Translations under genes and position numbers: made by a program
IMG/VR virus record: IMGVR_UViG_3300031774_000005
Span: 11,474-75,473 of that record
Length of the DNA: 64,000 nt
Origin: a virus
Reading direction: 5' to 3' (one strand)
Shown: in pieces, positions 35,782-62,244 of the stretch
Numbering within the stretch: position 1 is the first letter of the stretch
Layout of the letters: every line of letters starts with the position of its first letter
Notes under the pieces: model-generated
Database searches by the model: none
Told to the model about the DNA's origin: nothing
The model's input: only the letters and a program-made list of their open reading frames with translations

Positions 35782-36045
35782 TCACCTGTCTATTTGTAAT
35801 TGTTTAATTTCTTGAAATGACGCTCTTAATTCAGCGCACATATGGTCGTATAAAAAAACTAAATACTCTTCAAAAGTATAATCTCTAAACTGTTCATAAT
35901 CGTCTTTTTCGGATTTATAATCTAAATATAAACCGTCTCTTACCTCTTCTAATCTTTCTCTTTCTAATAATATTTCATCTTCTCTCAAAACCATTCCTCC
36001 AAACTTCTTTGTATTGTTCCCGTTCTTATTGATGTTAAATCCCAT
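35782..36045 (-). CDS. Hypothetical protein (true start probably downstream)
   Basis: ORF track. Confidence 0.45.
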   Translation of the reverse strand: MGFNINKNGNNTKKFGGMVLREDEILLERERLEEVRDGLYLDYKSEKDDYEQFRDYTFEEYLVFLYDHMCAELRASFQEIKQLQIDR

Positions 36046-37581: not shown

Positions 37582-37704
37582 TCATCTCTTATCTATTAAA
37601 TCCAAGAACTTTTCAGCCTCAATTCTTGCTTCTTCGGCACATCTTTTACAATGGTATTTGCCTTCAAATTCCGGCCTACATCTTAGTGGTGTTTTACATT
37701 TCAT
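37582..37704 (-). CDS. Small Cys-rich protein (40 aa; not in the ORF track)
   Basis: MKCKTPLRC...HCKRC; GGAG RBS. Confidence 0.5.
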   Translation of the reverse strand: MKCKTPLRCRPEFEGKYHCKRCAEEARIEAEKFLDLIDKR

Positions 37705-38138
37705 ACTTCTAACTCCTTATTTTTATTTTGTGCGTATTTTAGTGCTTGGATTTGAGAACTAAAAAACTTAAACAAACCATTTTGCCGAGTTCTTTTACCG
37801 CACTTTTCACAAGGCGATGATTGAAAAATACCATTTTTTAATTTATGTTCACCATGCTTAGTGGACATAATATTATATTGACCGCAACCTTCTTTTGGTG
37901 TTCTACCAGCAGGTTTTAACTTATTATCTTCTAATTGAACAGGGCATTTCCAAACCACCCAATTTCTTGAATGAATAGGAGATTGTTTTATTTCTTTCTC
38001 TAAAATATGGGAATGCCCTTCTCTAACTTCTTTATATTTTAAAAGAACGAGGGCTTCTTTTTCTGTAAAACTTAATGCTTCACTCATGGGTAATAAGTCC
38101 TTAATTAAAATATAAGTCCTTAAAGTTATACCACTCAT
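37701..38138 (-). CDS. Zn-binding hypothetical protein
   Basis: WKCP..GCG..CEKCG. Confidence 0.55.
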   Translation of the reverse strand: MSGITLRTYILIKDLLPMSEALSFTEKEALVLLKYKEVREGHSHILEKEIKQSPIHSRNWVVWKCPVQLEDNKLKPAGRTPKEGCGQYNIMSTKHGEHKLKNGIFQSSPCEKCGKRTRQNGLFKFFSSQIQALKYAQNKNKELEV

Positions 38139-49850: not shown

Positions 49851-50048
49851 TCAAGCCTCCGACAATAACGCCCATTCAATTTTATCTTTCAAATCAACAC
49901 CGAATCTGTGTTCATATGCCATAAGAAAATCAACTACGGTTTCAATACAACCTACCTGTTCTACCATATCTTCTATATCTTGCTTATCCCAATCATAAAT
50001 ATTAGTAGCAATATAACACGCTAAGTTTTTCATTTCTCTATATCCCAT
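49851..50048 (-). CDS. Hypothetical protein
   Basis: ORF track. Confidence 0.5.
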   Translation of the reverse strand: MGYREMKNLACYIATNIYDWDKQDIEDMVEQVGCIETVVDFLMAYEHRFGVDLKDKIEWALLSEA

Positions 50049-50050
50049 AC

Positions 50051-51565
50051 TTAAGCCTCCGGCAATAATACTGCTACATCTGTTGAGTAGAATAAAGATG
50101 CTATTGATAATGCCGCCAAGAAACTATTCTTAACTACCTTATATGGGTCAAAGACTCCTGCTTCTTCTAAGTTTTCTATCTTATTAGTAAGAGCATTGTA
50201 GCCCATACCGGAAGAAACATCAATTTCTAATTTTGATGAAACATCACCGCTATTTTCAATCAATGTTAGCATTGGTTGTTTTAAAGAATATGTGAACCAC
50301 TTCGGTAAAGTATCGTCTTTTGCTAATTTAGCATATAATGTTCCTCCACCAACTACAATTCCTTCTTCTAATGCGGCCTTTGTTGCATGTAAAGCATCAT
50401 CAAGTCTTTCTTTAGTTTCTCGCATTTCAATAGATGAAGAAGCACCAATTCTAATTGTGGCAACTCCCCCGCTAAGTTTTGCTATTCTGTTTTTGATTCT
50501 TGCTACTTGATGTCCTTTAGTATCTTTAGCCTGTTTCTTAAGCGTTTCAATTCTACTTAGAATCTCATATTCTTTTTCTTCATTTGTTCCAATAAAGGTA
50601 GTTGATTCTTTGGTAATAGATACTTTCTTACAAGTTCCTAAATCTAAAAGAGTGAAAACTTTAGGGTCGTCTTTGCTTTCTTCAACAAAAACTCTTCCAC
50701 CTAATGCACAAGCCATATCTCCTAATTCATTTATTTGTTCATCACCAAAATTAGGTGAAAGGACAACTGCACATTGAATAGTCTTTTGTAAAAGATTCAT
50801 AACTAAATTATTCATGGCTGAACCATCAAACCCTTTACAGAAAATAACAAGAGGCCGGTTGTTTGCTGAACTAAATTCTAATAGTGGCATAATATCGCTA
50901 AACTTTCTAATAGAAACATTAGACATAAACACCAATGGATTATCAAACTCAACACGGCCATTTTCAGTATTGCACATCAAATGACTTAGATAGCCTTCAT
51001 TGATTTCCATACCTTTTCTAATCTCAATTTCTGTATTATAATTATTAGATTCTTCAACGGTGATAATACCGTCTCTTCCTACTTCATCAATTGCTCCTTT
51101 AATTAGACTACCAAGATGCCTGTCATTGTTTGCCGCTATTGTAGCAACATTAAGAACATCGTCGTTTTCTACTTCAACAACATAAGTATCTAAATAATTA
51201 ATCATCGTATCTCTTAAATCGCTAATTAAGTTATTAAAATCATGAATTGACATATCTTCTCCAAAATCAACTAAATTATTACAAAAAGCCTGTGCTAAAA
51301 TACAAGCGGTAGTTGTTCCATCGCCCGAATTATCTTGTGCTTTACTTGCTAAGTTTTGAACTAATTGTATTCCCATTTGAACATACGGGTCTTCATGAGA
51401 AATATACTTTGTAATGGTAACTCCGTCATTAATAATAATGGGTGGATTACCTTGCAGTATAACTGTTTTGGCTTGTGGGCCAAGTGTAGGTTTTACTGTA
51501 TTAGCAACTAAATTAATTCCTTCTAACAATTTCTTTTTAACTTCTATTCTATCATTCAGTATCAT
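50051..51565 (-). CDS. groEL: Group I chaperonin (GroEL-like)
   Basis: TLGP, NDGVT, GDGTTT, ITVEES, GYLS, RIAKLSGGVATIRIGA, EEGIVVGGG. Confidence 0.92.
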   Translation of the reverse strand: MILNDRIEVKKKLLEGINLVANTVKPTLGPQAKTVILQGNPPIIINDGVTITKYISHEDPYVQMGIQLVQNLASKAQDNSGDGTTTACILAQAFCNNLVDFGEDMSIHDFNNLISDLRDTMINYLDTYVVEVENDDVLNVATIAANNDRHLGSLIKGAIDEVGRDGIITVEESNNYNTEIEIRKGMEINEGYLSHLMCNTENGRVEFDNPLVFMSNVSIRKFSDIMPLLEFSSANNRPLVIFCKGFDGSAMNNLVMNLLQKTIQCAVVLSPNFGDEQINELGDMACALGGRVFVEESKDDPKVFTLLDLGTCKKVSITKESTTFIGTNEEKEYEILSRIETLKKQAKDTKGHQVARIKNRIAKLSGGVATIRIGASSSIEMRETKERLDDALHATKAALEEGIVVGGGTLYAKLAKDDTLPKWFTYSLKQPMLTLIENSGDVSSKLEIDVSSGMGYNALTNKIENLEEAGVFDPYKVVKNSFLAALSIASLFYSTDVAVLLPEA

Positions 51566-51719
51566 TCTTTCCTCTCCTATATTGTGTTTCTTTAATTCCT
51601 TCTTGTAGTAAATAAACAAGAATCTCATTTGTTGTCATATTTAGGTCGTCTCTCATCTTCATTATGAAACTCCATTGTTGTTCCGTAAATGGTAATGAAT
51701 TAATATTTATTTCCTTCAT
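51552..51719 (-). CDS. Ribbon-helix-helix-like protein (55 aa; not in the ORF track)
   Basis: MKEININSLPFTEQQWSFIMKMRDDLNMTTNEILVYLLQEGI; sits between groES and groEL. Confidence 0.45.
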   Translation of the reverse strand: MKEININSLPFTEQQWSFIMKMRDDLNMTTNEILVYLLQEGIKETQYRRGKNDTE

Positions 51720-51964
51720 TCTTTCACCAACTTAGTTTGTTTTGTTTTAGAAAATACTCCCAACAAGTTTTCTGTTGGAACAAAAATCATATCTTCATGT
51801 GTTGGGAATCTATGTCTATCATCAAATAGAACTTCTTGTCCTTCTAATTCGGGATATTTAGGACATGAAACAACAAGCCCTCTTCCATCAGTTTTAATTT
51901 GAATACCACTTGAAGAAGTTGAGTTCTCAAGTTTAATTATGCAATAATCTCCAATAGCCCTCAT
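51716..51964 (-). CDS. groES: GroES-like co-chaperonin
   Basis: MRAIGDYCIIK..SSGI..GLVVS..GQEVLF..ENLLGV; next to GroEL. Confidence 0.75.
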   Translation of the reverse strand: MRAIGDYCIIKLENSTSSSGIQIKTDGRGLVVSCPKYPELEGQEVLFDDRHRFPTHEDMIFVPTENLLGVFSKTKQTKLVKE

Positions 51965-52233
51965 TACTCTTCCTCCGATGGTAAAGCAACCCAACCTCTT
52001 GCAGTTTCGGAAACCCATACTGATGTATGAGTTTTGTAAAACTGTTTCAGTCTTTTGTCTCTTTCTGTTTCTTTAGACCAAGTAATGCCTCTATCTTCCC
52101 TTCTAATGTTTTTATCATTAGGGTGTCTTTCTTGATGCCTTCTTTGTCTTTCAAGAAGAGTTTTAGGTTCTTCATCTACAATGACTTCTCCATATTCTCT
52201 TTTCTTTTGTTTTCTTTTATTATACATATTCAT
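51964..52233 (-). CDS. Basic hypothetical protein
   Basis: Coupled ORF. Confidence 0.5.
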   Translation of the reverse strand: MNMYNKRKQKKREYGEVIVDEEPKTLLERQRRHQERHPNDKNIRREDRGITWSKETERDKRLKQFYKTHTSVWVSETARGWVALPSEEE

Positions 52234-52814
52234 TCCTCTTCATTTCCATATTGATTCCATGTTTGGGTTCTTTCTAATTCGTGATTAACATAAATATCTA
52301 ATTGTTTAGGTTTATCGTTTTCCCAAAAACCATAGTGGCCTTTGCCACCTAAAACATAAGCAGTTTCCATCAATGGTTGCCAAATAGATACTGTGCTAAT
52401 ATCTGTTCCACTAAAATAAGCACTACCGAATGGGTGTGTATGAATCCAACATCTAACAGGCATTTTCATTCCTTTAGGAACAGAACCAAAATCAACAAAA
52501 CCGGATGAACCGGATGAAACATAACAATCATTCTTTGCATCAATAACAACTTGAACTTCTAAAGCCGGTAGTATGTTAGTTGAAGCATGCCAAATAGCAT
52601 CATGAAATTCTATATTATGAAATGCTACCATCTCTAATAATGCTTTATCATCATGTGGAACACCATCTAATCTTTCTTTAACAATATCTTCATATGCTGA
52701 CATTACATGATATTCAGCCTCCACTCTTGCTATTTCTATTTCTTCTAAATATTTATCATATCCATCATCATCACTATTAATTTCTTTGAAATAGTGGTCT
52801 TTTATTTTACCCAT
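52230..52814 (-). CDS. JAB/MPN+ (JAMM) metalloprotease
   Basis: LEVQV...WIHTHPFGSAYFSGTD (E..HxH-x7-S-x2-D). Confidence 0.9.
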   Translation of the reverse strand: MGKIKDHYFKEINSDDDGYDKYLEEIEIARVEAEYHVMSAYEDIVKERLDGVPHDDKALLEMVAFHNIEFHDAIWHASTNILPALEVQVVIDAKNDCYVSSGSSGFVDFGSVPKGMKMPVRCWIHTHPFGSAYFSGTDISTVSIWQPLMETAYVLGGKGHYGFWENDKPKQLDIYVNHELERTQTWNQYGNEEE

Positions 52815-52815
52815 T

Positions 52816-53958
52816 TTAATCTCTCCTTAGTTGTTTCTTAATCTTATCAATTCTCTTCTGTAATTTTGCCTGTTTTCTTGCTATCCTTCGCTCTCTACGG
52901 CTTGGTTTTGACGGCTTGGCCGACTTAGCCTTACGCTTGTTAATGACCTTAGAGGCTTCTATAAGCATTGAATGGTGTTGAGGTTCTGTGCTATCAACGA
53001 TGTATTCTAATCTACCTGCTATTTCAGCATAAGATTTATTGAATTTCTCTCTTGCTTCATCTATTGATAATTCATAAAAATTACAAAGAATATCAAAATC
53101 TTGTTCTTCTGTCCAAAGAACCTTTTTAGATTTCTTAGGCTTTACAACAATAGAACGATTTACTGTTTCTACATCTAAATACTTAGATTCAGTTCTTCTT
53201 TTTCTTGTTCCCATATTTTTAATATGAGCATTCTTTAGTGCTACAAACTTTTCTGCATCTTCCTTTGTTATCTTATCACCAATTTTAGATTCCATATCAA
53301 ATCTTCTTGGAGGCCAATAATCAAGGCCAAGTAATTCTCTTTGCTTCTTTGAATAGCCATTATTATCGGATAATCCGGCTTTAAGCAATTTGGCATTAAT
53401 AGTCTGCATTTGTTTTTCTTTCTTAGAACTGCTTTTAGGCTTCTTTCTAACAATATACCATTGGCGTTCAACTGCCGGTGGGTTTCTGCCAAATGATTTA
53501 GCAAGAACTCTTGCTTCTTTTGCACTTTTACAAGCCCTTATTTGCTTAATTTCTTCTTTCGTATATTTACTTCTTTTCATATTTTTCACTTCCTTATTTT
53601 TATTTTCTTTTTGAGACTTTACTATCTCTTGAATTTCTTTCGATGGGGTTTGTTTCAAAAGATTTTCCCATCTTTTAATGTTGAGAGGCTTACCAAATAC
53701 TTCTCCGTAAGCCATTATAGTTTGTTTTTCAGTCATAAGATTATGATGGCACTTATGTATAAAATCAATTTCTTCTTGGGGATAATCTACATTATTTTCA
53801 GTCAGCATTCTATATAATTTTTTAAGAGTGTTGCCCGAAACAGTTGTGTCAAACTTTCTGTTAAAGTTTCTTGCCATTCTATCCCAAGATACATGCCTTG
53901 CTGATGCTGAAACAACATATGCTATTTCTTGATTAGACCATTTATCAATCCAACTCAT
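52816..53958 (-). CDS. Multi-repeat Myb/SANT-like HTH protein
   Basis: Repeats WSNQEI, YPQEEI, YTKEEI, WTEEQD, each followed by HTH-like helices. Confidence 0.6.
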   Translation of the reverse strand: MSWIDKWSNQEIAYVVSASARHVSWDRMARNFNRKFDTTVSGNTLKKLYRMLTENNVDYPQEEIDFIHKCHHNLMTEKQTIMAYGEVFGKPLNIKRWENLLKQTPSKEIQEIVKSQKENKNKEVKNMKRSKYTKEEIKQIRACKSAKEARVLAKSFGRNPPAVERQWYIVRKKPKSSSKKEKQMQTINAKLLKAGLSDNNGYSKKQRELLGLDYWPPRRFDMESKIGDKITKEDAEKFVALKNAHIKNMGTRKRRTESKYLDVETVNRSIVVKPKKSKKVLWTEEQDFDILCNFYELSIDEAREKFNKSYAEIAGRLEYIVDSTEPQHHSMLIEASKVINKRKAKSAKPSKPSRRERRIARKQAKLQKRIDKIKKQLRRD

Positions 53959-54518
53959 AGATTCACCACCATATAATCTCTAACTTCATCATTATTTTGA
54001 AACCATCTTTGAGTCCATTGTGCGCCCATTCCTGCAATAGCAACTTGCATAAAGTGAACTCCCTCATTTGAACCATTCCAAGAATCACCTTGACAAGAAA
54101 AAGACCGTTCTTCACCCGCTAAAAGCATATCATACATTTTCGGGTCGGCCTTATAACTTACTAAAGCGGCATTCCTGCCTTGCGCTCGTAAATCAAGCCA
54201 TTTAATACTTGTGTTGTATAAAGTCTTTCTCACGCCTAAGTTATCTACACAACAAATAACCAAGTCATATCCTTGCATTTGTTTTTCTGTTAGAATAGGA
54301 AATTGACTCGCCTTACTAACACTGTTATGCCGAGCATTCATACTACTTACTTTGTATAAATTAACATCTTCTTCTGTAAAGTTTTGATATGGTAGATTCT
54401 TTGTTTCTACCGTATCGGGGTCTGCCACTGATATGTTATACAGTTCTACTTTATCTAAAAGCGGTATCAAGAAACTCCCAATACCACCTGCTCCAATTAC
54501 TAATATTTTTCTTTTCAT
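53955..54518 (-). CDS. ThiF/MoeB/E1-like adenylating enzyme
   Basis: VIGAGGIGS, DPDTVETKNLPYQ, ICCVDN..RK, WLD; Cys in SFSCQ at the MoeB/E1 crossover-loop position. Confidence 0.9.
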   Translation of the reverse strand: MKRKILVIGAGGIGSFLIPLLDKVELYNISVADPDTVETKNLPYQNFTEEDVNLYKVSSMNARHNSVSKASQFPILTEKQMQGYDLVICCVDNLGVRKTLYNTSIKWLDLRAQGRNAALVSYKADPKMYDMLLAGEERSFSCQGDSWNGSNEGVHFMQVAIAGMGAQWTQRWFQNNDEVRDYMVVNL

Positions 54519-54524
54519 TTTTAT

Positions 54525-54773
54525 TCACTCCTTGCTTTCTTCTTCTAATCTAACTATATTGAGTGCCATATATAATTCCATAAAGAAATTAGTTAGCCAA
54601 TCATCTTTCTTTAGAATAGTCATATCATGTTCTAAATCATTTTGATACATTTGATTTATTTCCTTTACTATTCTATCTTTATTCTCTAAGAAAGCCATTT
54701 CTATTTTATGTCTGCTCTCTTTTAGTTTTTTAAATTCTTCTTCTGTTCCTTTCCACATTGTTATTCCTCTCAT
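54525..54773 (-). CDS. Hypothetical protein
   Basis: Coupled ORF. Confidence 0.5.
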   Translation of the reverse strand: MRGITMWKGTEEEFKKLKESRHKIEMAFLENKDRIVKEINQMYQNDLEHDMTILKKDDWLTNFFMELYMALNIVRLEEESKE

Positions 54774-55618
54774 AATTCTTTTCCTTTTAGTTCTTCAACT
54801 AATTCAACACCGATTAAATTCAGTATTGCTTTTGTTTGTTTCCAAACAATCCATCTTGAGAATCCTGTTTTCTCACATATTCTCTCTTTAGTAATATTAT
54901 CCTTAACATATACATTAGCCGTTATCCAAATAATAGAGGCGTAGTATGACCTACCTTTATTGAAGGTAGAGTTTAAGACTACTGTTTCAAAATACTCTAA
55001 CACATGAATACATTGACTTCTAAAAGTTATGTCATCTGTTATTTTTATTAATGTCTGTATCAAAGCATACTGCGGATTAATCGGTTTGTAATTAATACTA
55101 TTTCTATGAAACTGATTAATCTTCCTTACTAATCTTTTAACTGATTTGACATTAGGGCTAAATTCAGCGCATACATCTTTGATAGTGTGCGGAGTTCCGT
55201 TCTCCTTTAGTGCATAATAAACAACTGCGGTTGCTCTTGCTTCGTATTGGCTTCTTCCAAATAGGCTTCTATTTAGACAATCAATGTATAGTTTTTCAAC
55301 TCTCGCTTGGAGAGAACTATTAGGTGCTACATTTGCTAATACCATATTACAGAATCTAATTCCATTTTGGATATGCTTAGGTAAAACACTATTCATTCCA
55401 TACTTATTATACTTGAAAGAACCTTTACCCGTTATTACAGAACCTAATTTATTTCTGTCCGGTGAATGAACTAACTCACCTGTTGAATCAAGAATATGAA
55501 CTGTCTCTTCAAACATTTCTGTTATCAAAACAAGTCCACAGTCTTTACAAACTGTTTCGCCAAGCCGTTCATTAAACTCATTGTTTTGGCTTCTGCATTC
55601 TTCGCAAATTAATTTCAT
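54770..55618 (-). CDS. tfb: Transcription factor IIB (TFB) homologue
   Basis: Zn ribbon CEEC..GETVCKDCGLV; two cyclin repeats (GRS..A.A.VYYA; GRS..ASIIW). Confidence 0.85.
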   Translation of the reverse strand: MKLICEECRSQNNEFNERLGETVCKDCGLVLITEMFEETVHILDSTGELVHSPDRNKLGSVITGKGSFKYNKYGMNSVLPKHIQNGIRFCNMVLANVAPNSSLQARVEKLYIDCLNRSLFGRSQYEARATAVVYYALKENGTPHTIKDVCAEFSPNVKSVKRLVRKINQFHRNSINYKPINPQYALIQTLIKITDDITFRSQCIHVLEYFETVVLNSTFNKGRSYYASIIWITANVYVKDNITKERICEKTGFSRWIVWKQTKAILNLIGVELVEELKGKEL

Positions 55619-56813
55619 TCCCCTCAATCCTATATTTATTCGCATCGTGTATCATATATCCCTTGATAGTTGATACCATTTTTACTGTTATTAAATCATT
55701 TAGAAGTGCTAATGCTCTACCTGCGAATTGGTCGCCTAATGGTGAATTATTCGCCACATTGTCTATACAAATCGGCCCACTCCAAAACTTGAAATCTTCT
55801 TCATTACTCTCATTGATATTGAAATACTTTGTTCCCTCAACTACACTAATGTTCCCAAGCATCCAATTGCTTTCTTCAAATTCAGCAACAACATCTTTCT
55901 TTGGTTGCCAAATATAAGTTGATACCATTTGTATTCCTGTCTTATATCTGTTATTAGTTAGTTTCCAATCGTAGCCTCTACCTCTAACATACATTGTAGT
56001 TAATATTCCTTCTTCATCATAAACTGCATGAATGCGACCATCATGTTGATTGCATAAATCCTTTACTAATTGTAATGCTCTTTCTTCAACCATATCTTGA
56101 GTTCTGTTCTGCATTAGAAATGCTCTCATAACTTTCTTTTCAGCAGTTGTTGGTTCTCTACCCAATAGTTTCTTGAATAAATATTTTGGGCCAAGTTTTT
56201 TCCATGAACCTCTTGATTTACCAAGATGATAAAAATTACAAAAAGTATCTAATTGTCTTGGGGTTATTTCTCCCCAAATACCGTCGCTTATTTCCATAGC
56301 GAGCATATTATCATCTATTTGCACAACATTTAGTCTAACTTCTATTTTTTCAAAGTCATGAATAAAATGATATGGCGCACGATTCTCTAAACAATATCTA
56401 ACATTTTCCGGTAGTGATAATGTTGAATACAAACTACTCAACAATACTTCCGGATTATCTTCAAAACAAGATTTGTAGGTTAGTCTTGCTAATGCTGAAC
56501 ATATGGTAGCAAGGCTATATGATTTACCATTTAGTTGATACCTAATACCTTCTCGGCTTAATACAACAGGGCAGGTTTTAACCATAACAACATGATTAAA
56601 TTTGTAACCAAATCCACTACTATATCTATTTCTTGGGGAAATAATACCTCTCCAAAAATCTTCTAATCCTGCATGAACAGGGTCTTTCTTTCCTCTTTGA
56701 ATACCAACAGACCTTTGATTTCCAAAATCATGTGTTTCACATCTTATTGTTGTCGTATCTGTTATCCTTGAATCGTCAGGTCTTGCTATATTTAAATTAC
56801 ATTCTCTACTCAT
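55578..56813 (-). CDS. Hypothetical 411-aa protein; candidate divergent E2-like C-terminal domain
   Basis: GPICIDNVANNSP resembles the E2 active-site G-x-ICLD..SP; no HPN motif. The function call is weak. Confidence 0.35.
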   Translation of the reverse strand: MSRECNLNIARPDDSRITDTTTIRCETHDFGNQRSVGIQRGKKDPVHAGLEDFWRGIISPRNRYSSGFGYKFNHVVMVKTCPVVLSREGIRYQLNGKSYSLATICSALARLTYKSCFEDNPEVLLSSLYSTLSLPENVRYCLENRAPYHFIHDFEKIEVRLNVVQIDDNMLAMEISDGIWGEITPRQLDTFCNFYHLGKSRGSWKKLGPKYLFKKLLGREPTTAEKKVMRAFLMQNRTQDMVEERALQLVKDLCNQHDGRIHAVYDEEGILTTMYVRGRGYDWKLTNNRYKTGIQMVSTYIWQPKKDVVAEFEESNWMLGNISVVEGTKYFNINESNEEDFKFWSGPICIDNVANNSPLGDQFAGRALALLNDLITVKMVSTIKGYMIHDANKYRIEGNEINLRRMQKPKQ

Positions 56814-56817
56814 ATTA

Positions 56818-56979
56818 TCACATCAAATATATATTGTTATTATCTTTATCGCATTCTGCGTGAATTTCATTTTTAATTTCTTGGGCGTTTAATAACTGCC
56901 CTCCGCACACACGGCATCGTGTGGCTATTCTTTTCTTTGTCCTATTAGACAAGGTATAGTTCGGGTCTTTTTCTTTCAT
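56818..56979 (-). CDS. Small C2HC Zn-finger protein (53 aa; not in the ORF track)
   Basis: CRVCGGQL...HAEC. Confidence 0.55.
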   Translation of the reverse strand: MKEKDPNYTLSNRTKKRIATRCRVCGGQLLNAQEIKNEIHAECDKDNNNIYLM

Positions 56980-57355
56980 TGTTATTCCTCAATTGTTCTT
57001 TAATTTTTATTTGAACTTGGCAAACCTTACAATCCGGTTCACCTTCACAATTATATTTGTGATACTCAACTATTTCTTTAGAGAGTTTTAATTCCTGCTT
57101 TAGATATTGAGGGAAGCCCATTTCAATTGCTTCTCTAATATCCCAAAAACAAAGCATAAGAGTATCATTCATTCTATACATTTTGTCTCTATCATCTATC
57201 AAAGACTCACAGACATTTATTGCCATTTTTACTCTATGGATATTCACTGGCGAATAATCCCTAATCATTATTATTACTGCTGAAAGATACTCCTTGTATG
57301 TAGCAAAGAGTTTCTTCATAGTTTTCACCTTATATTTCGCAAGACCCACCTGCAC
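56945..57355 (-). CDS. Hypothetical protein
   Basis: ORF track; AAGGTGA RBS before MKKLF. Confidence 0.5.
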   Translation of the reverse strand: MQVGLAKYKVKTMKKLFATYKEYLSAVIIMIRDYSPVNIHRVKMAINVCESLIDDRDKMYRMNDTLMLCFWDIREAIEMGFPQYLKQELKLSKEIVEYHKYNCEGEPDCKVCQVQIKIKEQLRNNNERKRPELYLV

Positions 57356-59192
57356 AGGCTAATTCACCCGACAAGTCAGTATTGTCTTGAGTTTCAATAA
57401 CTTTCGTTAAATCAACATTTGTCAATGCCCCGCTTAATTCTTCAAACTTGTCTTTATCGCAAGTTTCAAACGGTGCTTGAGTATATGTTCCCCCATCAAA
57501 AGGAAGGACTGAAAGACCATTATAATAATGCCGGTTAAGCCAAAACCAATCTCCAACAGACTCCCATTCATCTTCTTTAATAGAAACTGTTGCTGAAACA
57601 TTATGGGTATTTAGCCCATCTTTGTGTCCTGCTCTAACCCAACTAATGCTAAATTCCTTAATTCTTTCTAATAAATCAAATACTGATTCATTACGAGTAA
57701 TAGCATTTAATGGTGCTTGTTGAGGAACTGAAATAACCGCTTGTTCGTGTGGCTTAAAATACTCATCTTCAATTAACGATGGGTGTTCTTTGGAAAGATA
57801 GCCATAAATTGCTTCATTCTTACCAACTCTTAGTCTCCTAATATAATACTCATCGTGGTAAGCATGAATACCACTACTTGTTCCTAAAACAAGAGAAGTT
57901 GTTCCAGCAGGTTTTATGCAAGTTGTTCTTGCGGCAGGTTTTATTCCTATTATTTCTGCTACTCTCTTATTTTCATTAACTACCTCAATTGCGGCCATGT
58001 GTAAATCTAATTCCGCTACTTTATTAGCGGCAATACCTGTCATAGATACTCCTAATAGTGCATCTTTTTCTGTATTCTTTCTCCATATTTCTCTTAAATA
58101 ATGAAAATCAGTATATCCTGCTTGTAATGTTCCTAAGAATGCTCCTGCACTAACTCTTGCTTCTAAATCCGCTTGGTCTTTTACATTAGAAGCATTAACT
58201 TCTGTTAAATTACAAAATTGATATGGTCGTAAAGCAATCTCACAACAAGGGTTTGTTCCCCAATCTTTGTCATTATTGAAATAAATTCCGGGTTCTCCGC
58301 TTCCTGACGCTTTAATTCTATTCCATAGATTTAAGAAATAATCTTTAGTTATTCTATGTCTAAGTAAAACTGCTGAATTGTTTGCCCTGCCCCTTTGTGG
58401 GTTATTTTCCCACCATTTACCGGATTTAGCGGCAATCATTCCCATATCATCAGCAGAAAACAAACTAATCATAGCGGCTCTCCTAATTCCACCACTTAAT
58501 ACTGCATCAGCAATATGACACATAATATCATGGCAATATATAGGATTAAGTTGATAATTACCGCATCTTTGTAAGATTCCTTCTATTTTAACTAAACATT
58601 CTCTTAATGGTTGAGAACCGGGTGCTTTACCACCAGAAGTAATTAATAATGCTCCTTTCTCTCTTATATCGGAATAATCAAAAATAGGAGTTGATTTCCT
58701 AATTCCCATATAACACTCTAAAAGAATTTTAACTGCATCAGCCCAACCTTCAATTGAATCGGCAATTAAATATCTTCTTTGTCTATCCGGATTTGGCATT
58801 ATCAATTCGGGTAATTGTTCTACATGGTGTCTTTGAACAGAATATCCAACTCCTGTTCCACCAAGTAATAAAAACATAGCCTCGCTAAAGGCTAAGTGTG
58901 AATCTATTGGCATATATGCACAATTATATACTCTATTTGGTGATATATCAATTGGCTTTCCTGCAAATTGCATTGAGCGCATTGATGGTAATACTAACTT
59001 AGGTATTACAAAATGTGCATAAACATCTCTAATGTCTTGTTCTAACATTGGATATTTCTTAATATGCATATTCATATTTCTTTCACAAATCTCTTCCCAA
59101 GTTTCTCTTCTTAGAAGTTCGGGCTTAAATTTTGCATATTTCATATGCACTGTTATATCTGATAAAATTTTCTTATTGGGGGCTTGTTCCAT
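57330..59192 (-). CDS. nrdJ: Class II (adenosylcobalamin-dependent) ribonucleotide reductase, monomeric type
   Basis: LPSMR, YNC, GVGYS, TNPCCEI, CNLTE, KPAGT, C-terminal CAGGSCEI; no beta subunit. Confidence 0.92.
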   Translation of the reverse strand: MEQAPNKKILSDITVHMKYAKFKPELLRRETWEEICERNMNMHIKKYPMLEQDIRDVYAHFVIPKLVLPSMRSMQFAGKPIDISPNRVYNCAYMPIDSHLAFSEAMFLLLGGTGVGYSVQRHHVEQLPELIMPNPDRQRRYLIADSIEGWADAVKILLECYMGIRKSTPIFDYSDIREKGALLITSGGKAPGSQPLRECLVKIEGILQRCGNYQLNPIYCHDIMCHIADAVLSGGIRRAAMISLFSADDMGMIAAKSGKWWENNPQRGRANNSAVLLRHRITKDYFLNLWNRIKASGSGEPGIYFNNDKDWGTNPCCEIALRPYQFCNLTEVNASNVKDQADLEARVSAGAFLGTLQAGYTDFHYLREIWRKNTEKDALLGVSMTGIAANKVAELDLHMAAIEVVNENKRVAEIIGIKPAARTTCIKPAGTTSLVLGTSSGIHAYHDEYYIRRLRVGKNEAIYGYLSKEHPSLIEDEYFKPHEQAVISVPQQAPLNAITRNESVFDLLERIKEFSISWVRAGHKDGLNTHNVSATVSIKEDEWESVGDWFWLNRHYYNGLSVLPFDGGTYTQAPFETCDKDKFEELSGALTNVDLTKVIETQDNTDLSGELACAGGSCEI

Positions 59193-59282
59193 ATTTTTCA
59201 CCTGCATTTCTCCGACTTAAGTTGCCGGCATAAATATATCCCTTATGTTTAAATAAGGAATAAAGTCCATTTTTTGTTTATT

Positions 59283-59331
59283 AAAAAAAGGGATAGCACA
59301 TAGTAAATGGAACTAAACTATGTGCTACCCC
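59283..59331 (-). terminator. Hairpin plus U-tract downstream of the Ubl gene
   Basis: TAGCACATAGT / ACTATGTGCTA 11-bp inverted repeat extended by GGG/CCC; T7 on the - strand. Confidence 0.7.
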
Positions 59332-59365
59332 AAAGAGTAGTTAGAGGGAGTTAGCAAACTTCCGC

Positions 59366-59575
59366 TTATTCCTGTCCTCCGACAATTGCCGGAATCAAAT
59401 CAACGGAAGATACTTCTTCCCAATTGATACCTCTAATATCTTCTCTTGATACAATATCACCATCAATGATAGCCCAATGTGTAGGGTGTGTATCTATCTG
59501 TTCTATAATCTCGCTTGAGGCCATCATCAGTTCTGTGTGGCCTGTTTCATTCATAATTCTTAATTTAATTGACAT
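59366..59575 (-). CDS. Ubiquitin-like (beta-grasp, SAMP/ThiS/MoaD-like) protein with a GG-QE C-terminus
   Basis: 69 aa; IIDG (cf. xVNG) and terminal VDLIPAIVGG followed by QE. Confidence 0.75.
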   Translation of the reverse strand: MSIKLRIMNETGHTELMMASSEIIEQIDTHPTHWAIIDGDIVSREDIRGINWEEVSSVDLIPAIVGGQE

Positions 59576-59609
59576 AATTAATCCTCTCCGTTCTTGCTAT
59601 TCCTCTTAA

Positions 59610-59619
59610 CTATTTAAAG
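59610..59619 (-). promoter_or_regulatory. Putative TATA box of the Ubl gene
   Basis: CTTTAAATAG on the - strand, about 35 nt upstream of the ATG; GAGAGGA RBS. Confidence 0.5.
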
Positions 59620-59662
59620 GAGTTCACAAATAAGTTTTGTCGGCCTCCTTTAAGCCTTGACT

Positions 59663-60079
59663 TTATTTTTTCATCAACTCCAAAATCTTGTTGTTGAGTG
59701 TAAGAAGTTGCCTTTGCATCTTCTCTTTGAATTGTTTATCTTCTTCTTGTTTTTCTAACCATAAAGAAAAAAGTTGAGTATGCATTTCTTCCTTTACTGT
59801 TTTAAGAAAGTCTGCATCTATTAATGTATTTAATGAGTTATTTAACTCTCCTTTGATTATACTTGGTATTGAATCAACTTCTTGTTGAAGTTTAGCAATA
59901 TCAATTTTAATCACTTTAAGTTTAGTTTCTTCAAACTCTTCATACCTTTTAAGTTGAAAAGTTTTATTATTTTTAACCTTTAAATAACAATCAAGACAGT
60001 GTTTTTGCCATCTTGCTGATTTAGCACTTCTCGCAACAAAAAGTGTTTTGCACATTTGACATTCTTTTTGAACTGTCAT
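59663..60079 (-). CDS. Zn-ribbon plus coiled-coil protein
   Basis: CQMC..HCLDC. Confidence 0.55.
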   Translation of the reverse strand: MTVQKECQMCKTLFVARSAKSARWQKHCLDCYLKVKNNKTFQLKRYEEFEETKLKVIKIDIAKLQQEVDSIPSIIKGELNNSLNTLIDADFLKTVKEEMHTQLFSLWLEKQEEDKQFKEKMQRQLLTLNNKILELMKK

Positions 60080-60080
60080 T

Positions 60081-60323
60081 TCAAACAAACTCCCTGTCTT
60101 GTTTTTCAAAAGCATAGTTTTCTTCTAAATAACTTGTTAGAATCATATCCATCTTTTCTTGTAATGCTTCCATAATTCCTGCAATTACTCTACGATTAAG
60201 ACTAATCCATAGTCTATGATGAGTGTTAATTACTACCTTTGGGTTATCATCTTCATTCTGCGATATTACCAAAGGTGGTAAATCGGGGCTATCTACTATT
60301 CTAAATTCTACATTTGTATTCAT
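60081..60323 (-). CDS. Hypothetical protein
   Basis: ORF track. Confidence 0.55.
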   Translation of the reverse strand: MNTNVEFRIVDSPDLPPLVISQNEDDNPKVVINTHHRLWISLNRRVIAGIMEALQEKMDMILTSYLEENYAFEKQDREFV

Positions 60324-60694
60324 ATTATCATATCTCCTGTTAGTTTATTTGGGTGAAGGAAATACTCACCCGCTTTTTCTCCGTTTTCATCATAGATTGT
60401 ATCGTGCAAATTAGCCACAATAAAATCCCATGCTTCTTCCGTAAGAATATAATTATCTTGTTTTATTACTGCATTGGTTTCAAACAACTGCACACCTAAT
60501 TTCTTAAATTGCCGTTGTAATGAAACTGCATTCATCTTGATTGTATTATCGCCTATGTCCTTAAGCCCTGCTTGTAATAAAACAGATGCAACGCTCGCTT
60601 CAACATTATGCGTTTGGTCTTTGTGCCATTTAATGATGTTATTTAGCACTGTTATTTCTGCTAATTCTCTAAACATATAAATCATATTATTCAC
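60320..60694 (-). CDS. Hypothetical protein
   Basis: Coupled ORF. Confidence 0.5.
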   Translation of the reverse strand: MNNMIYMFRELAEITVLNNIIKWHKDQTHNVEASVASVLLQAGLKDIGDNTIKMNAVSLQRQFKKLGVQLFETNAVIKQDNYILTEEAWDFIVANLHDTIYDENGEKAGEYFLHPNKLTGDMII

Positions 60695-60998
60695 CTGCGT
60701 ATGCTTTTGCTACATGAATAGCATTGACGAAATTCTTAGTTTGAATCATTCCTTCAAGTCTCGCTATATCATCATTGTCATTTTTATCCATTTGACTTAC
60801 TGTAAATGTAGCAACTAATAACGCTAACTGTTGCTTACTTGACTTTGTTAATAAATCTGCTAACTGTTCCGTCATGTGGTCTTTGTATTGTTCTGTTAAT
60901 AGACATTCTATACATTCAACCCATTCCATCTGTTCTAATCTATAATTAGCAACTTCATAATGACCTTTACCTTCACAAATATTACAATCTTTGTTCAT
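60687..60998 (-). CDS. Zn-finger protein
   Basis: CNICEGKG..CIEC. Confidence 0.55.
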   Translation of the reverse strand: MNKDCNICEGKGHYEVANYRLEQMEWVECIECLLTEQYKDHMTEQLADLLTKSSKQQLALLVATFTVSQMDKNDNDDIARLEGMIQTKNFVNAIHVAKAYAGE

Positions 60999-61369
60999 TC
61001 AATCACTTCCTGTTTAGTTAATGAGAAGTCTATCTTTCTCTTATCCATCTCATCAACCCATTCATTCCATTCCTTTCTTGACATGCGACAAACATCTCTA
61101 TGCGCTTCGTCTAATACTTCATCAATTGATGCCGAGCCGGAGTTCATCCAAGCATACCACAACAAATCAAAAGTGTTCAAGGCTTCCATATCAGTTAGCC
61201 ATTGTTTTGAGTATTCCCAATCACCGTCGCTATCAAAGTCATCTTCACTCATTATTTTATTAAAGCCATTACAATAACACAAGTTGTTATCTTGTAGCCA
61301 TTTATCATCTTCTCTACTAAGGTTTTGCCATTCTTTTTCCGTTAATGGTTGTCCTAATTTAAATCTCAT
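60995..61369 (-). CDS. Acidic Trp-rich hypothetical protein
   Basis: Coupled ORF. Confidence 0.55.
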   Translation of the reverse strand: MRFKLGQPLTEKEWQNLSREDDKWLQDNNLCYCNGFNKIMSEDDFDSDGDWEYSKQWLTDMEALNTFDLLWYAWMNSGSASIDEVLDEAHRDVCRMSRKEWNEWVDEMDKRKIDFSLTKQEVIE

Positions 61370-61518
61370 TCTTCTTCACACTCACAATCGCCATCAACAA
61401 AACAACCGCATTCTAAATAACATTCACAGTCCATACTTGCATAACAACCGCATTCTAATTTAGGGTCTAAGTGGTCGTCTAATGCCGCCCAACACATATT
61501 ATCGGGATAATTACTCAT
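61366..61518 (-). CDS. Metallothionein-like Cys-rich peptide (50 aa; not in the ORF track)
   Basis: LECGCYASMDCEC-Y-LECGCFVDGDCEC; GGGTGA RBS; ATGA overlap with the next gene. Confidence 0.6.
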   Translation of the reverse strand: MSNYPDNMCWAALDDHLDPKLECGCYASMDCECYLECGCFVDGDCECEEE

Positions 61519-61624
61519 TAGTTTCACCCGCTTTCTTTTCCGCTTCGGTAAAACAACCGTAGCAATAATGTCTGTCTTTACTTATTCTTACATTACAATT
61601 TATGCATCTGTATATTTCTTTCAT
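61511..61624 (-). CDS. Small Zn-finger peptide (37 aa; not in the ORF track)
   Basis: CINC..CYGC. Confidence 0.5.
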   Translation of the reverse strand: MKEIYRCINCNVRISKDRHYCYGCFTEAEKKAGETNE

Positions 61625-61737
61625 ATTTCTTCCCCTCCTTCATTTGTCGCAAGTTCAGCCAATATTGCTATACCAACGCCTCCAACAATAATATATCCTG
61701 CCGTAAAAGCAATTCCTTTTAATAATCCTTTAATCAT
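61621..61737 (-). CDS. Small membrane peptide (38 aa; not in the ORF track)
   Basis: IAFTAGYIIVGGVGIAILA; ATGA overlaps on both sides. Confidence 0.5.
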   Translation of the reverse strand: MIKGLLKGIAFTAGYIIVGGVGIAILAELATNEGGEEI

Positions 61738-61976
61738 TCTTCTTCACCTTCACAAAATTCTGTAAAGTCATTTAGATATTGTTCTGCATCAACAAATTGA
61801 CTATGTTCAATAGTCATTCTATCCAAATGCGCTGTCCAATTTCCTACATTTCCTGCATCTAAATTATCTTGCCAAAATTCGTGCAGGTCTTTCATCTTAT
61901 CAAAATGATAAGTCACTGTTTCAGATATGGTGTTATCACCATAAATTGTATTTCCATATTTCTTTGTTATTTTCAT
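61734..61976 (-). CDS. Hypothetical protein
   Basis: GGAG RBS. Confidence 0.55.
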   Translation of the reverse strand: MKITKKYGNTIYGDNTISETVTYHFDKMKDLHEFWQDNLDAGNVGNWTAHLDRMTIEHSQFVDAEQYLNDFTEFCEGEEE

Positions 61977-61980
61977 TCTT

Positions 61981-62244
61981 TCATTCTCCTTTTAATTTGT
62001 TTTCAAAAATCCCGCTTCGTATTGGCGGTGGTTTTCTTTCGGGGTTGTATTTTTCATATACTTCTTCATAACAACCATCACATATTTTAATTAATATTTT
62101 ATTTTCTATTTCTGTTAATTCTATTGTTTGAAATTCAATTAACATATGATATTTAGCACCTAAAGCGCATATATCACATTTTGGTGTCTTTTCTTTGTTT
62201 TTACTGACAAAGAATTTCTTTATCCAATCTATCATGTAAATCAC
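61981..62244 (-). CDS. Zn-finger protein
   Basis: CDIC..CDGC. Confidence 0.55.
   Translation of the reverse strand: MIYMIDWIKKFFVSKNKEKTPKCDICALGAKYHMLIEFQTIELTEIENKILIKICDGCYEEVYEKYNPERKPPPIRSGIFENKLKGE

Follow-up and report, generated by a model that had tools for sequence, protein, structure and literature searches.

A putative ubiquitin-like conjugation module encoded by magroviruses and uncultured phages

An ocean archaeal virus (magrovirus) carries four conserved genes, encoding a ubiquitin-like protein (Ubl), a minimal E1-type enzyme (mini-E1), a JAB/JAMM metalloprotease (JAB), and a 411-aa partner protein, which are best read as a virus-encoded Ubl conjugation module; we regard this reading as probable, though not strongly so, in the absence of biochemical data and with the targets unidentified. 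In many uncultured phages this set is packed into a tight operon, and therefore viruses of both archaea and bacteria probably tag proteins themselves. To our knowledge, the prokaryotic ubiquitin-like conjugation characterised to date serves either cellular defence against phages (type II CBASS, Bil, and Bub) or housekeeping in archaea (SAMPs). One paper mentions in passing a MoeB/ThiF gene of archaeal viruses, which it labels a MoeB-type AMG (PMC8276007), and we found no paper describing a viral module of Ubl, E1, JAB, and E2-like protein. All coordinates are positions in the window analysed, a 64,000-nt stretch of IMGVR_UViG_3300031774_000005 (record positions 11,474 to 75,473).

Gene content in magroviruses and phages

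The four genes are dispersed across 7.3 kb of the magrovirus replication/early arm (Table 1). A preliminary description of this DNA had proposed Ubl, E1, and JAB reading frames, and all three are present on the minus strand where it had placed them.

Table 1. Genes of the putative module and a possible accessory gene
Feature	Position	Strand	Basis
Ubl, 69 aa	59366..59575	-	Beta-grasp model and invariant PAIVGG
Mini-E1, 187 aa	53955..54518	-	Pfam ThiF; hhalign to MoeB
JAB/JAMM metalloprotease, 194 aa	52230..52814	-	Invariant JAMM motif
Conserved partner, 411 aa, candidate E2	55578..56813	-	UBC/RWD-like C-terminal domain; invariant Cys349
53-aa protein, possible accessory, membership uncertain	56818..56979	-	Four invariant metal-ligand-like residues

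Among magrovirus loci with enough flanking sequence, the Ubl gene is present in 42 of 42, the 411-aa protein gene in 49 of 49, and the JAB gene in 67 of 67; a failure to co-occur in related viruses, which had been named in advance as grounds for abandoning the idea, was not found. This count is weak by itself, because the viruses are closely related and share ancestry. E1 and Ubl rank with the most conserved proteins encoded in the arm, with median identities of 75% and 70%, respectively; the values for the 53-aa protein and the chaperonin are 63% and 59%. The 53-aa protein has an invariant Cys22-x2-Cys25...His40-x2-Cys43 arrangement (28 homologs, 61% mean column identity) and its gene ends 5 nt ahead of the 411-aa protein gene, and no counterpart has been shown in the phage operons.

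Independent support for the module, as judged from sequence, is provided beyond magrovirus co-occurrence by the phage operon and by Ubl-E1 fusions. Phages with sigma-70 and PolA, an uncultured and different virus lineage, encode homologs of the Ubl and the mini-E1 together with a JAB in one overlapping operon, and in at least 30 phage loci the tight Ubl-JAB-E1 operon is directly preceded by a gene for a protein of ~700 aa. The phage operon Ubl is homologous to the magrovirus Ubl over its full length (29% identity, E 2e-6), and in the phage Ubls, too, the Gly-Gly is invariant and has 0 to 2 variable residues after it. The C terminus of the ~700-aa phage protein aligns with the 411-aa protein (hhalign 93.8%, E 1.8e-7, 253 columns). 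Only a 24-column active-site block of the magrovirus JAB aligns with the phage operon JABs in a profile-profile comparison (hhalign). Natural fusion proteins of the form Ubl-linker-mini-E1 also occur (P0098, P0117, and P0124); in one JAB-bearing cassette (L100) the Ubl has a C-terminal extension of 195 aa, and in all five cassettes without a JAB the Ubl terminates exactly at GG.

The mini-E1 family comprises 730 clusters at E<1e-10, mostly of 185 to 207 aa. In 185,579 species genomes it was found only on three MAG contigs, themselves magrovirus-like, and on this sequence evidence the family is viral and not host-derived. The module would then be an ancient, essentially virus-specific unit common to magroviruses and one uncultured phage lineage.

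The Ubl, the JAB, and the mini-E1

The Ubl had been described as a 69-aa beta-grasp-like protein with the end IPAIVGG-QE. Its C terminus is as described and an AF2 model (pLDDT 88) predicts a beta-grasp with the topology ββ-α-ββ-(α)-β, so that the absence of such a fold, which would have counted against the proposal, did not materialise. The predicted mature end is Gly66-Gly67 (codons at 59375-59380), followed by a Gln-Glu tail (59369-59374) and the stop codon; PAIVGG is invariant in 36 homologs, in which a variable tail of 0, 1, or 2 residues comes after it. The top Foldseek matches of the model are almost all ubiquitin or Ubls, with modest scores (E ~3e-3, probability 0.9-1.0), and most VIA rows are ubiquitin, Ubls, or beta-grasp sulfur carriers, the remainder being a few small domains of other beta-grasp or alpha/beta type (Z up to 5.5). 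Named fold neighbours include ubiquitin, NEDD8, SUMO, ISG15, MoaD (Z 5.5), and ThiS (26% identity over 58 residues), and VIA also lists CysO and TtuB. At the sequence level, the Ubl was not matched by Pfam ThiS (PF02597) at E<=1 with hmmscan or in a six-frame search of the record, and its profile found no match in a PDB sequence search.

The JAB, first noted as a JAMM protease with an intact motif, bears this out: E86, H125-x-H127, S135, and D138 (E...HxHx7SxxD; codons at 52557-52559 for Glu86 and 52401-52442 for His125 to Asp138) are invariant in 41 homologs. It falls below the threshold of Pfam Prok-JAB (PF14464; 18.9 bits versus 25), whereas the phage operon JABs lie above it. The family profile matches only JAMM deubiquitinases in the PDB (AMSH-LP, Sst2, and Rpn11; E 1e-3 to 0.6 over ~52 residues), and the nearest named language-model (Atlas) clusters are Prok-JAB (0.93).

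The assignment of a minimal ThiF/E1 holds: the protein exceeds the Pfam ThiF (PF00899) cut-off (60 bits versus 28.1; 2.5e-16; residues 3-165), aligns with Escherichia coli MoeB (hhalign 97%), and keeps ATP-site residues. G9-x-G11-G12-x-G14, D33, K56, and D92 correspond in the hhalign alignment to MoeB G38..G43, D62, K86, and D130, and R97 corresponds to R135; the nucleotide loop and D33, K56, and D92 are invariant across the family. Arg73 of the MoeB NLxRQ motif is absent from the ATP site; the residue aligned with it is Tyr44, which does not vary among magroviruses and is conserved to 90% or more in 64 distant mini-E1s. The MoeB Zn site is also absent: C172/C175 align with YKADPKMYDML, which contains no Cys, and there is no second CxxC pair because the protein ends ~45 residues beyond Cys142. 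It is a single adenylation domain without a rhodanese, UFD, Cys domain, or other extra domain. Cys142 (codon 54093-54095) is invariant within an SCQ motif, and C155/Q156 of SCQ are among the invariant residues of the 64 distant members. It lies 10 residues beyond the end of the MoeB alignment, compared with 11 for MoeB Cys187; in the absence of a structural alignment, the crossover-loop position claimed for this residue is only a prediction from the MoeB alignment, although its invariance is established.

A thiocarboxylate role has to be weighed here, in which the Ubl would hand sulfur on to an enzyme of the host or an unrecognised one of the virus for tRNA thiolation, a cofactor, or a small molecule, as implied by the "MoeB AMG" label, and the JAB would mature the carrier like QbsD or release an adduct like Mec+. 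Triads of E1, Ubl, and JAB also occur in sulfur biosynthesis (CysO/Mec/MoeZ and QbsCDE). MoaD, ThiS, CysO, and TtuB are among the closest structural neighbours of the Ubl, the models matched by the mini-E1 include ThiF, MoeB, and UbaA, and the published label of the viral gene points the same way (PMC8276007). However, a rhodanese is found neither on nor near the mini-E1, and searches of the record and of five complete relatives detected no enzyme that would relay or consume sulfur (rhodanese, PP-loop thiolase, MoaE, or cysteine desulfurase); the Pfam searches gave no match to Rhodanese, ATP_bind_3, or MoaE in the record and none to Rhodanese, ATP_bind_3, or Aminotran_5 in the relatives. Such searches are insensitive to divergent viral proteins, the ThiS model missing even the magrovirus Ubl. 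A DsrE match to the reading frame at 60687-60998 was rejected as noise, only 1 of 30 family members matching. The viral origin of the mini-E1 family and the conserved UBC-like partner with its invariant Cys, which has no role in sulfur relay, also count against a sulfur carrier. The missing enzymes lower the likelihood of this role without excluding it, because host enzymes could serve, and sequence alone cannot rule out a thiocarboxylate function served by enzymes of the host; overall we consider it unlikely. The earlier preference for conjugation over sulfur relay is supported by the phage operon, the fusions, the UBC-like partner, and the lack of a detected sulfur partner.

The 411-aa partner and the proposed pathway

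The preliminary description had also postulated an E2, without coordinates. A UBC/RWD-like protein could be located for this role; what is lacking is an HPN motif, with W-x-G-P in its place, and any sequence-level match to an E2, there being no UQ_con or Prok-E2_B match in the record and no Pfam or PDB sequence match for the 411-aa protein. Its N-terminal ~236 aa have no recognised fold and are followed by the UBC/RWD-like domain (aa ~237-400, nt 55614-56105). In the AF2 model (pLDDT 87), residues 237-408 show the order α-β4-...-Cys-α-α-α, with Cys349 located 10 residues before the helix 359-371, as judged without residue-level superposition. Of the 50 best VIA-wide rows, about 40 are E2, UBC, RWD, or UEV domains matching residues 237-408 (Z 4.0-5.7, 85-129 residues aligned), all below the VIA caution line of Z 8, and Foldseek found nothing significant. 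RWD and UEV folds are frequently non-catalytic, a caveat that attends any E2 assignment here. Cys349 (codon 55767-55769) lies in the context W-x-G-P-I-C-I-D-N and is invariant in magroviruses and near-invariant in the alignment merged with the phage homologs. UBC enzymes carry an "ICLD" sequence that resembles this I-C-I-D context. Given the modest structural scores, the protein remains a candidate E2 predicted from a model.

The module could instead work without an E2, the mini-E1 alone conjugating the Ubl as in sampylation and the 411-aa protein being a substrate, an adaptor, or a non-catalytic RWD/UEV-type partner. UbaA of Haloferax conjugates SAMPs to proteins without an E2, and the magrovirus host lineage is euryarchaeal, where this E1-only mode is known; the modest UBC-fold scores, the mixture of RWD/UEV with E2 matches, and the lack of an HPN motif and of a sequence-level E2 match are all compatible with it. 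However, Cys349 and I-C-I-D are kept between magrovirus and phage partners at only ~15% identity, a conservation not easily reconciled with a non-catalytic scaffold, and the partner gene also adjoins the Ubl gene in bacteriophages, which infect hosts without sampylation. We therefore judge an E2-independent mode improbable.

In the conjugation pathway that we favour, the Ubl would be made with a two-residue tail, and trimming by the JAB would expose Gly-Gly; the trimming is inferred because relatives show variable tails of 0 to 2 residues as well as long-tailed and fused forms. The mini-E1, probably a homodimer like MoeB, ThiF, and UBA5, would adenylate the terminal Gly with ATP (an inferred activity), and the Ubl would move onto Cys142 as a thioester, both the step and its chemistry being inferred. 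Transfer to Cys349 in the UBC-like C-terminal domain of the 411-aa protein is likewise an inference. Target choice by the N-terminal 236 residues of this protein is speculative and would make it a combined E2/E3; equally speculative is the last step, in which the Ubl would end on lysines of host or viral proteins and the JAB may also reverse the modification. The purposes suggested in the preliminary description, among them proteasomal turnover, takeover of transcription, and counter-defence, are conjectures for which there is no support so far.

The final acceptor need not be a protein: the activated Ubl might be ligated to a lipid, a nucleic acid, or a small amine, or take part in intramolecular chemistry like that of ThiF-like RiPP enzymes. 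ThiF-like enzymes catalyse diverse carboxylate-activation chemistry (PMC12596934, PMC12250964), MccB is among the PDB matches of the mini-E1, and the targets are wholly unidentified. We nevertheless consider this very unlikely, as the protein to be activated is not a peptide precursor but a folded beta-grasp of 66 residues that ends in a canonical GG, and the JAB and UBC-like partners indicate a protein-conjugation toolkit.

In its fullest form, the proposal is that of an ancient virus-specific conjugation machine, combining a thioester-type E1 that would be the smallest known with a new E2 family housed in a large specificity protein, a GG-ended Ubl, and a JAB, used offensively on host or viral proteins in early infection and mirroring the cellular Bil, CBASS, and Bub systems; this we put forward only tentatively, with the balance leaning slightly against it. 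If it is true, tagging machinery serves both sides of the virus-host conflict, a minimal E1 of ~185 residues and a new E2-like family become available for mechanistic study, and there is a handle on the takeover of uncultured marine group II archaea by magroviruses. Both abundant ocean archaeal viruses and many uncultured phages conserve the module, which is small enough for reconstitution in E. coli or in vitro and therefore directly testable.

Comparison with known systems

Assignment of the module to PRTRC, Bil, or CBASS proper is unsupported. The mini-E1 matches PRTRC_ThiF (TIGR03736) and CBASS Cap2 (7tsx, E 4e-8; PADLOC E1-E2 models), but its scores are far below the family cut-offs; PRTRC was rejected at 39.2 bits versus 144.75, no other PRTRC model matching any neighbour. 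Cap2, in which E1 and E2 are fused, conjugates a cyclase and not a free Ubl, and none of the ParB, cyclase, or effector genes that accompany PRTRC and CBASS is present at the viral module.

The sulfur-carrier systems (CysO/Mec+/MoeZ, QbsE/QbsD/QbsC, ThiS-ThiF, and MoaD-MoeB) share with the viral set a GG-ended beta-grasp carrier, in some cases trimmed of additional residues by a JAMM protease, and a MoeB/ThiF-type adenylating enzyme, whereas the viral module has a UBC-like partner and lacks a rhodanese, the Zn site, and a detected sulfur-consuming enzyme. The haloarchaeal SAMP/UbaA/HvJAMM1 system resembles it in its archaeal setting, small ThiS/MoaD-like GG Ubl, single MoeB-type E1, and JAMM protease. 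However, UbaA is a full-length MoeB-type enzyme, while the viral E1 is truncated, belongs to a virus-specific family, and scores only 30 bits against the NCBIfam model of the SAMP-activating E1 (cut-off 450); in addition, SAMPs double as sulfur carriers and have no E2, in contrast to the conserved UBC-like partner of magroviruses.

Bub (6E/DUF6527) likewise has a minimal, homodimer-type E1 adenylation domain, and its JAB cleaves a fused Ubl precursor, comparable to the viral Ubl fusions; BubA (9eav_C) is among the fold neighbours of the magrovirus Ubl. The Bub E1 has no catalytic Cys and the Bub E2 uses Ser (PMC11601596), whereas both candidate catalytic residues of the viral module are invariant Cys; the module also lacks the DUF6527 protease, and the domain fusions differ.

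The Bil systems (BilABCD) are bacterial ISG15-like anti-phage systems (PMC11601596, PMC10557695), whose E1 combines inactive and active adenylation domains with a mobile Cys domain and is encoded in a cellular operon (PMC11601596). Membership in Bil was rejected on the single-domain architecture of the 187-aa viral E1 and the location of the genes in a virus genome. Bil defends cells against phages, whereas the magrovirus module is virus-owned; its genes are dispersed, and its E2-like domain forms the C-terminal part of a protein of 411 aa (~700 aa in phages) without a sequence match to known E2 families. What the two have in common is a four-part composition of free Ubl, E2-type carrier, JAB/JAMM peptidase, and E1, in which processing or deconjugation would be the expected task of the JAB; the fold neighbours of the magrovirus Ubl also include a bacterial Ubl of the BilA type (8tyz_B).

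Genomic setting and linkage of the module

The virus is represented by a 75.5-kb IMG/VR contig estimated to be 80% complete, of which the window covers 64 kb; its relatives are IMG/VR contigs of 90 to 97 kb. The window has two divergent arms with a strand switch near 30 kb. The minus-strand arm carries a replication module that comprises a family-B DNA polymerase, a clamp-like protein, an RFC-like ATPase, an ATP-dependent ligase, nucleases of the ERCC4 and PD-(D/E)XK types, a chaperonin of the Cpn60 type, a TFB-like factor, and a ribonucleotide reductase (RNR) of class II. Group B magroviruses, which are tailed viruses attributed to archaea of marine group II, have been described with this gene set (PMC5434244). 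Amid these early and replication genes lies a module encoding a ubiquitin-like protein (Ubl), a ThiF/MoeB-type activating enzyme (mini-E1), a JAMM metalloprotease (JAB), and a 411-aa protein.

Coordinates of the module genes and of other features discussed
Feature	Position	Strand	Remark
Family-B DNA polymerase, two ORFs	35985-36875; 38135-39790	-	Pfam DNA_pol_B positions 36-193 and 222-347
ORF between the polymerase ORFs	37701-38138		145 aa
Region of acidic C-terminal tails	49851-62244	-	gene ends, e.g., 52230, 51964, 61366, 61734
ORF upstream of chaperonin	51716-52018	-	100 aa
JAB	52230-52814	-	194 aa
ORF between mini-E1 and JAB	52816-53958	-	380 aa
mini-E1	53955-54518	-	187 aa
Candidate E2	55578-56813	-	411 aa
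Cys/His protein	56818-56979	-	53 aa; ends 5 nt before the 411-aa gene start
ORF near RNR	56945-57355		136 aa
RNR	57330-59207	-
Ubl	59366-59575	-	69 aa
ORF with DsrE match	60687-60998
RNR of phage contig L100	L100:779-2611
RNR of phage contig L070	L070:3130-6507

The two polymerase ORFs are separated by about 1.26 kb, including an ORF without a Pfam match, and the interruption could be a split gene, an intein- or intron-like insert, or a mobile-element insertion. Around the module, many ORFs have acidic C-terminal tails (…EEE, …GE, …PEA) whose codons (GAGGAA, GGAGG) lie 5 to 12 nt ahead of the next gene's start codon, so that the same nucleotides encode C-terminal residues and serve as ribosome-binding sites for the downstream, translationally coupled genes. 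The ORF directly upstream of the chaperonin gene looked GroES-like by eye but has no Pfam Cpn10 match; the founding description of magroviruses took them to encode no co-chaperonin (PMC5434244).

Across magrovirus loci with enough flanking sequence, the module genes always co-occur (Ubl in 42 of 42, JAB in 67 of 67, and the 411-aa ORF in 49 of 49), as the preliminary description of a viral conjugation pathway would have it, and Ubl lies 2.5 to 6.7 kb from mini-E1. Few proteins of the arm are as well conserved as mini-E1 and Ubl, whose median identities are 75% and 70%; the chaperonin reaches 59% and the TFB-like protein 48%. In viruses so closely related, such co-occurrence and conservation alone say little. 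Independent evidence that the genes belong together comes from outside magroviruses, namely, from a phage operon, a recurring cassette, a large mini-E1 family, gene fusions, the pattern of JAB loss, and the near absence of mini-E1 from cellular genomes. The 94-kb contig L070, identified as a bacteriophage by its sigma-70 factor and family-A polymerase, has an overlapping operon encoding a 79-aa protein ending in NALVGG at the stop codon, a 151-aa Prok-JAB (Pfam, 3.8e-14), and a 204-aa mini-E1 that is 34 to 37% identical to that of the window; its Ubl and that of the window show full-length homology (29% identity; E, 2e-6). The cassette recurs in 30 or more nonmagrovirus loci in the order class II RNR, ~140-aa protein, ~700-aa protein, Ubl, JAB, mini-E1, small protein, sigma factor, and PolA.

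In a profile search of 1.84 billion representative proteins, the mini-E1 family comprises 730 clusters at E values of <1e-10, mostly of 185 to 207 residues, and three representative proteins are Ubl-linker-mini-E1 fusions; in one of them (P0098), the Ubl domain ends in LVPGLVGG and is followed by a Gly/Ser linker to the E1. Two further architectures were seen: a mini-E1 with an N-terminally fused HTH/sigma-70 region-4-like domain (P0083) and a 615-aa protein in which an E1 precedes an unknown extension of ~440 aa (P0133). At least 353 viral stretches in IMG/VR are confirmed to encode mini-E1 relatives. A scan of 185,579 species genomes yielded only three contigs, all in marine metagenome-assembled genomes (MAGs; labeled Maricaulis sp. 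and Altibacter sp.); all three encode JAB, the 411-aa partner, and a mini-E1 of 51 to 56% identity, two also carry RNR (68%) and chaperonin, and the third carries the TFB-like factor. Because of these magrovirus genes, the contigs are probably viral sequences misbinned into bacterial genomes. Cultured phages in INPHARED match mini-E1 only in its N-terminal Rossmann part and never over its full length, and a DNA-level search of phages matched RNR alone.

The transcription initiation factor of the virus adjoins the module in both lineages (TFB-like in magroviruses, sigma-70 in phages), and RNR is usually adjacent too, which offers a lead on the timing of the module and not on its targets; a search of RNA runs yielded no expression data, with two runs matching less than 0.1 of the query words. 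The window RNR shares 63% identity with the RNR of the uncultured phage L100; in magroviruses as well as in most phage cassettes, an RNR gene neighbors the Ubl module, magrovirus relatives without RNR retain the Ubl module, and the L070 copy contains an HNH-containing intein.

Ubl, JAB, and mini-E1

All three reading frames were found where the preliminary description had placed them, including the PAIVGG-QE end of Ubl and the intact JAMM motif of JAB. PAIVGG is invariant in 36 relatives and is followed by zero, one, or two variable residues (QE, SY, NL, HC, Q, and others), a pattern that, judged by sequence, is the signature of a putatively C-terminally processed ubiquitin-like protein. The proposed beta-grasp fold is supported by a confident AlphaFold2 model on the family alignment (pLDDT, 88). 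Foldseek matches it almost exclusively to ubiquitin, NEDD8, SUMO, ISG15, or MoaD at the top (probability, 0.9 to 1.0; E values of only ~3e-3), and an all-against-all structural search retrieves MoaD, FUBI, ISG15, a bacterial BilA-type Ubl, ThiS (26% identity), CysO, and TtuB with Z scores of 4.2 to 5.5; ubiquitin-family and sulfur-carrier beta-grasps dominate the top rows, with a few other small domains among them. Modest scores are expected for 66 residues. The Ubl profile gave only chance matches against PDB sequences, and the Pfam ThiS model fails to detect the protein. SAMPs and Urm1 serve both conjugation and sulfur transfer, so the fold cannot decide between these roles.

In JAB, Glu86 and His125-x-His127-x7-Ser135-x2-Asp138 are invariant in 41 homologs with otherwise very variable N termini. 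Its Pfam Prok-JAB score is below threshold (18.9 versus 25 bits); in the PDB, all matches of the family profile are JAMM deubiquitinases (AMSH-LP, Sst2, and Rpn11; best E, 1e-3), and of the named language-model clusters those closest to JAB are Prok-JAB. The alignment between magrovirus and phage JABs is confined to the 24-column motif. All five JAB-less cassettes have a Ubl ending exactly in GG, and all seven Ubls with one to three extra residues or, in L100, a 195-residue extension adjoin a JAB; this fits a processing role for JAB, with numbers too small for significance (P ~0.15 by hand estimate). The lysine-rich ORF between mini-E1 and JAB varies from 102 to 423 aa among relatives and has only weak matches (PHROG “transcriptional regulator, D5-like,” 1e-5; DUF7516); it looks like a variable insert that does not belong to the module.

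Mini-E1 scores 60 bits with Pfam ThiF (cutoff, 28.1). Its profile alignment with Escherichia coli MoeB (probability, 97%) brings into register the GxGGxG loop, Asp33 (MoeB D62), Lys56 (K86), Asp92 (D130), and Arg97 (R135), with Tyr44 in place of MoeB Arg73 and without the Zn-binding CxxC. Cys142 is invariant and lies 10 residues past the alignment end, compared with 11 for MoeB Cys187, so the crossover-loop position suggested for it is reasonable. Invariant in 64 distant members are the P-loop Gly-Gly-Gly, Asp41, Lys64, Asp98, Arg103, Asp120, Arg122, and the Cys-Gln of “SCQ.”

The 411-aa candidate E2

A candidate E2 had been named without coordinates in the preliminary description; the 411-aa protein fills that place as a good candidate and not as a demonstrated E2. 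Its counterpart in phage cassettes is the ~700-aa protein always found directly upstream of Ubl, for which Pfam gives no match. Pairwise BLAST against the 754-aa protein of L070 was not significant, and the link is visible only in profile-profile comparison (93.8% probability; E, 1.8e-7; 253 columns), which pairs residues 75 to 371 with the last ~270 residues of the phage protein. In magroviruses the common block is W-x-G-P-I-C-I-D-N...L-G-D-Q-F-A-x-R-A-L-A-L-L-N-D; its phage form is Y-I-C-I-V-D-K-S...V-G-x-D-K-L-V-N-R-I-Y-A-L-x-N-D. A Cys is near-invariant across both, and the block recalls the active-site stretch of UBC enzymes, G-x-I-C-L-D-I-L.

The AlphaFold2 model on the merged alignment (pLDDT, 87) has, from residue 237, a long helix, four strands, a poorly modeled insert, a strand ending at Cys349, and three helices. 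Foldseek found nothing significant; in an independent search of 48,161 chains, E2, RWD, or UEV domains fill ~40 of the top 50 rows (among them the FANCL E2-like fold, Ubc9, UBE2O, UBE2S, Ube2K, UbcH10, UbcH5, UBC12, Ubc13, UBE2J2, and UFC1), all mapping to residues ~237 to 408 (Z, 4.0 to 5.7; 85 to 129 aligned residues). By the caution line of that search, Z scores below 8 can reflect a common arrangement. The protein lacks an HPN motif and a sequence-level E2 match, its family profile finds no E2 in the PDB, and a language-model atlas gave no usable match to the UBC-like part. We thus treat the C-terminal domain as UBC/RWD-like, with a plausible catalytic Cys.

In six relatives (L018, L020, L029, L044, L045, and L060), the tblastn match to the 411-aa protein crosses an in-frame stop codon, which could reflect alignment overrun, a sequencing error, or a gene that is truly split or recoded. 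The neighboring 53-aa protein, with invariant Cys22-x2-Cys25...His40-x2-Cys43 and a median identity of 63% (above that of the chaperonin), may serve the module as a zinc-binding accessory; no link to phage cassettes was found. The 136-aa ORF was rejected as the counterpart of the ~140-aa phage-cassette Zn-ribbon gene (unrelated; hhalign, 0.2%).

Conjugation, sulfur transfer, and known systems

E1-Ubl-JAB triads are also known from sulfur pathways of cysteine and siderophores, and a thiocarboxylate on Ubl could be accepted by host enzymes. However, mini-E1 lacks a rhodanese domain, its family is viral and not borrowed from a host pathway, and a sulfur relay leaves no place for a UBC-like partner that is conserved and has an invariant Cys. 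The reported lack of a sulfur-relay partner held in six-frame Pfam searches, which detected neither rhodanese nor PP-loop thiolase in the record or in five complete relatives (CheckV, 100%), no MoaE in the record, and no cysteine desulfurase in those relatives; such searches are insensitive to divergent viral proteins, as the ThiS model's failure with Ubl illustrates, and these could be missed. A DsrE match was dismissed as noise, being present in 1 of 30 members of a family that resembles a DnaJ-type CxxC zinc finger. We regard a sulfur-carrier role of Ubl as unlikely and some other chemistry as more improbable still, and we favor, with reservation, protein conjugation through an E1-E2-like relay.

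For such a relay, sequence and models supply a GG-ended beta-grasp, an intact JAMM site, an ATP site intact apart from the Arg-to-Tyr change, and two invariant Cys residues, along with genetic linkage, fusion, and co-occurrence. The steps themselves are inferred: JAB would trim the QE tail, mini-E1 would adenylate Gly67 of Ubl and form a thioester at Cys142, and Ubl would then be transferred to Cys349 of the 411-aa protein. That the N-terminal 236 residues of this protein may select targets is speculative, as is the identity of the targets.

Two magrovirus papers, including the founding description, do not mention ubiquitin, ThiF, or JAB (PMC5434244, PMC10160649), and Iyer et al. (2006) describe, as regards phages, only the Ubl and JAB of lambda/T1 tail assembly. 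A host-prediction paper remarks in passing that a MoeB/ThiF gene belongs to the “AMGs” most prevalent in archaeal viruses, and it draws a loose connection with ubiquitination (PMC8276007); the E1 by itself is therefore not new. Our literature search found no description of the Ubl, JAB, 411-aa partner, or phage operon and no publication for PDB 9egb. What is already known is the conjugation toolkit; viral ownership, the minimal E1, and the E2-like family are new.

Mini-E1 matches PRTRC and Cap2 at the superfamily level only. The module resembles SAMP/UbaA in its archaeal setting and small MoeB-type E1, whereas mini-E1 scores far below that family's model and the module has an extra E2-like partner; we regard E2-independent, SAMP-like conjugation as unlikely. 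The module shares with Bub a minimal homodimer-type E1 and, by inference, precursor cleavage but retains Cys at both candidate catalytic positions. In its proposed mode of action, the nearest known system is Bil, which likewise has a free Ubl, E2, JAB, and E1; however, the viral module is not a Bil member, because its E1 is a single 187-residue domain, in contrast to the tandem-domain BilD, and because the module is owned by a virus.
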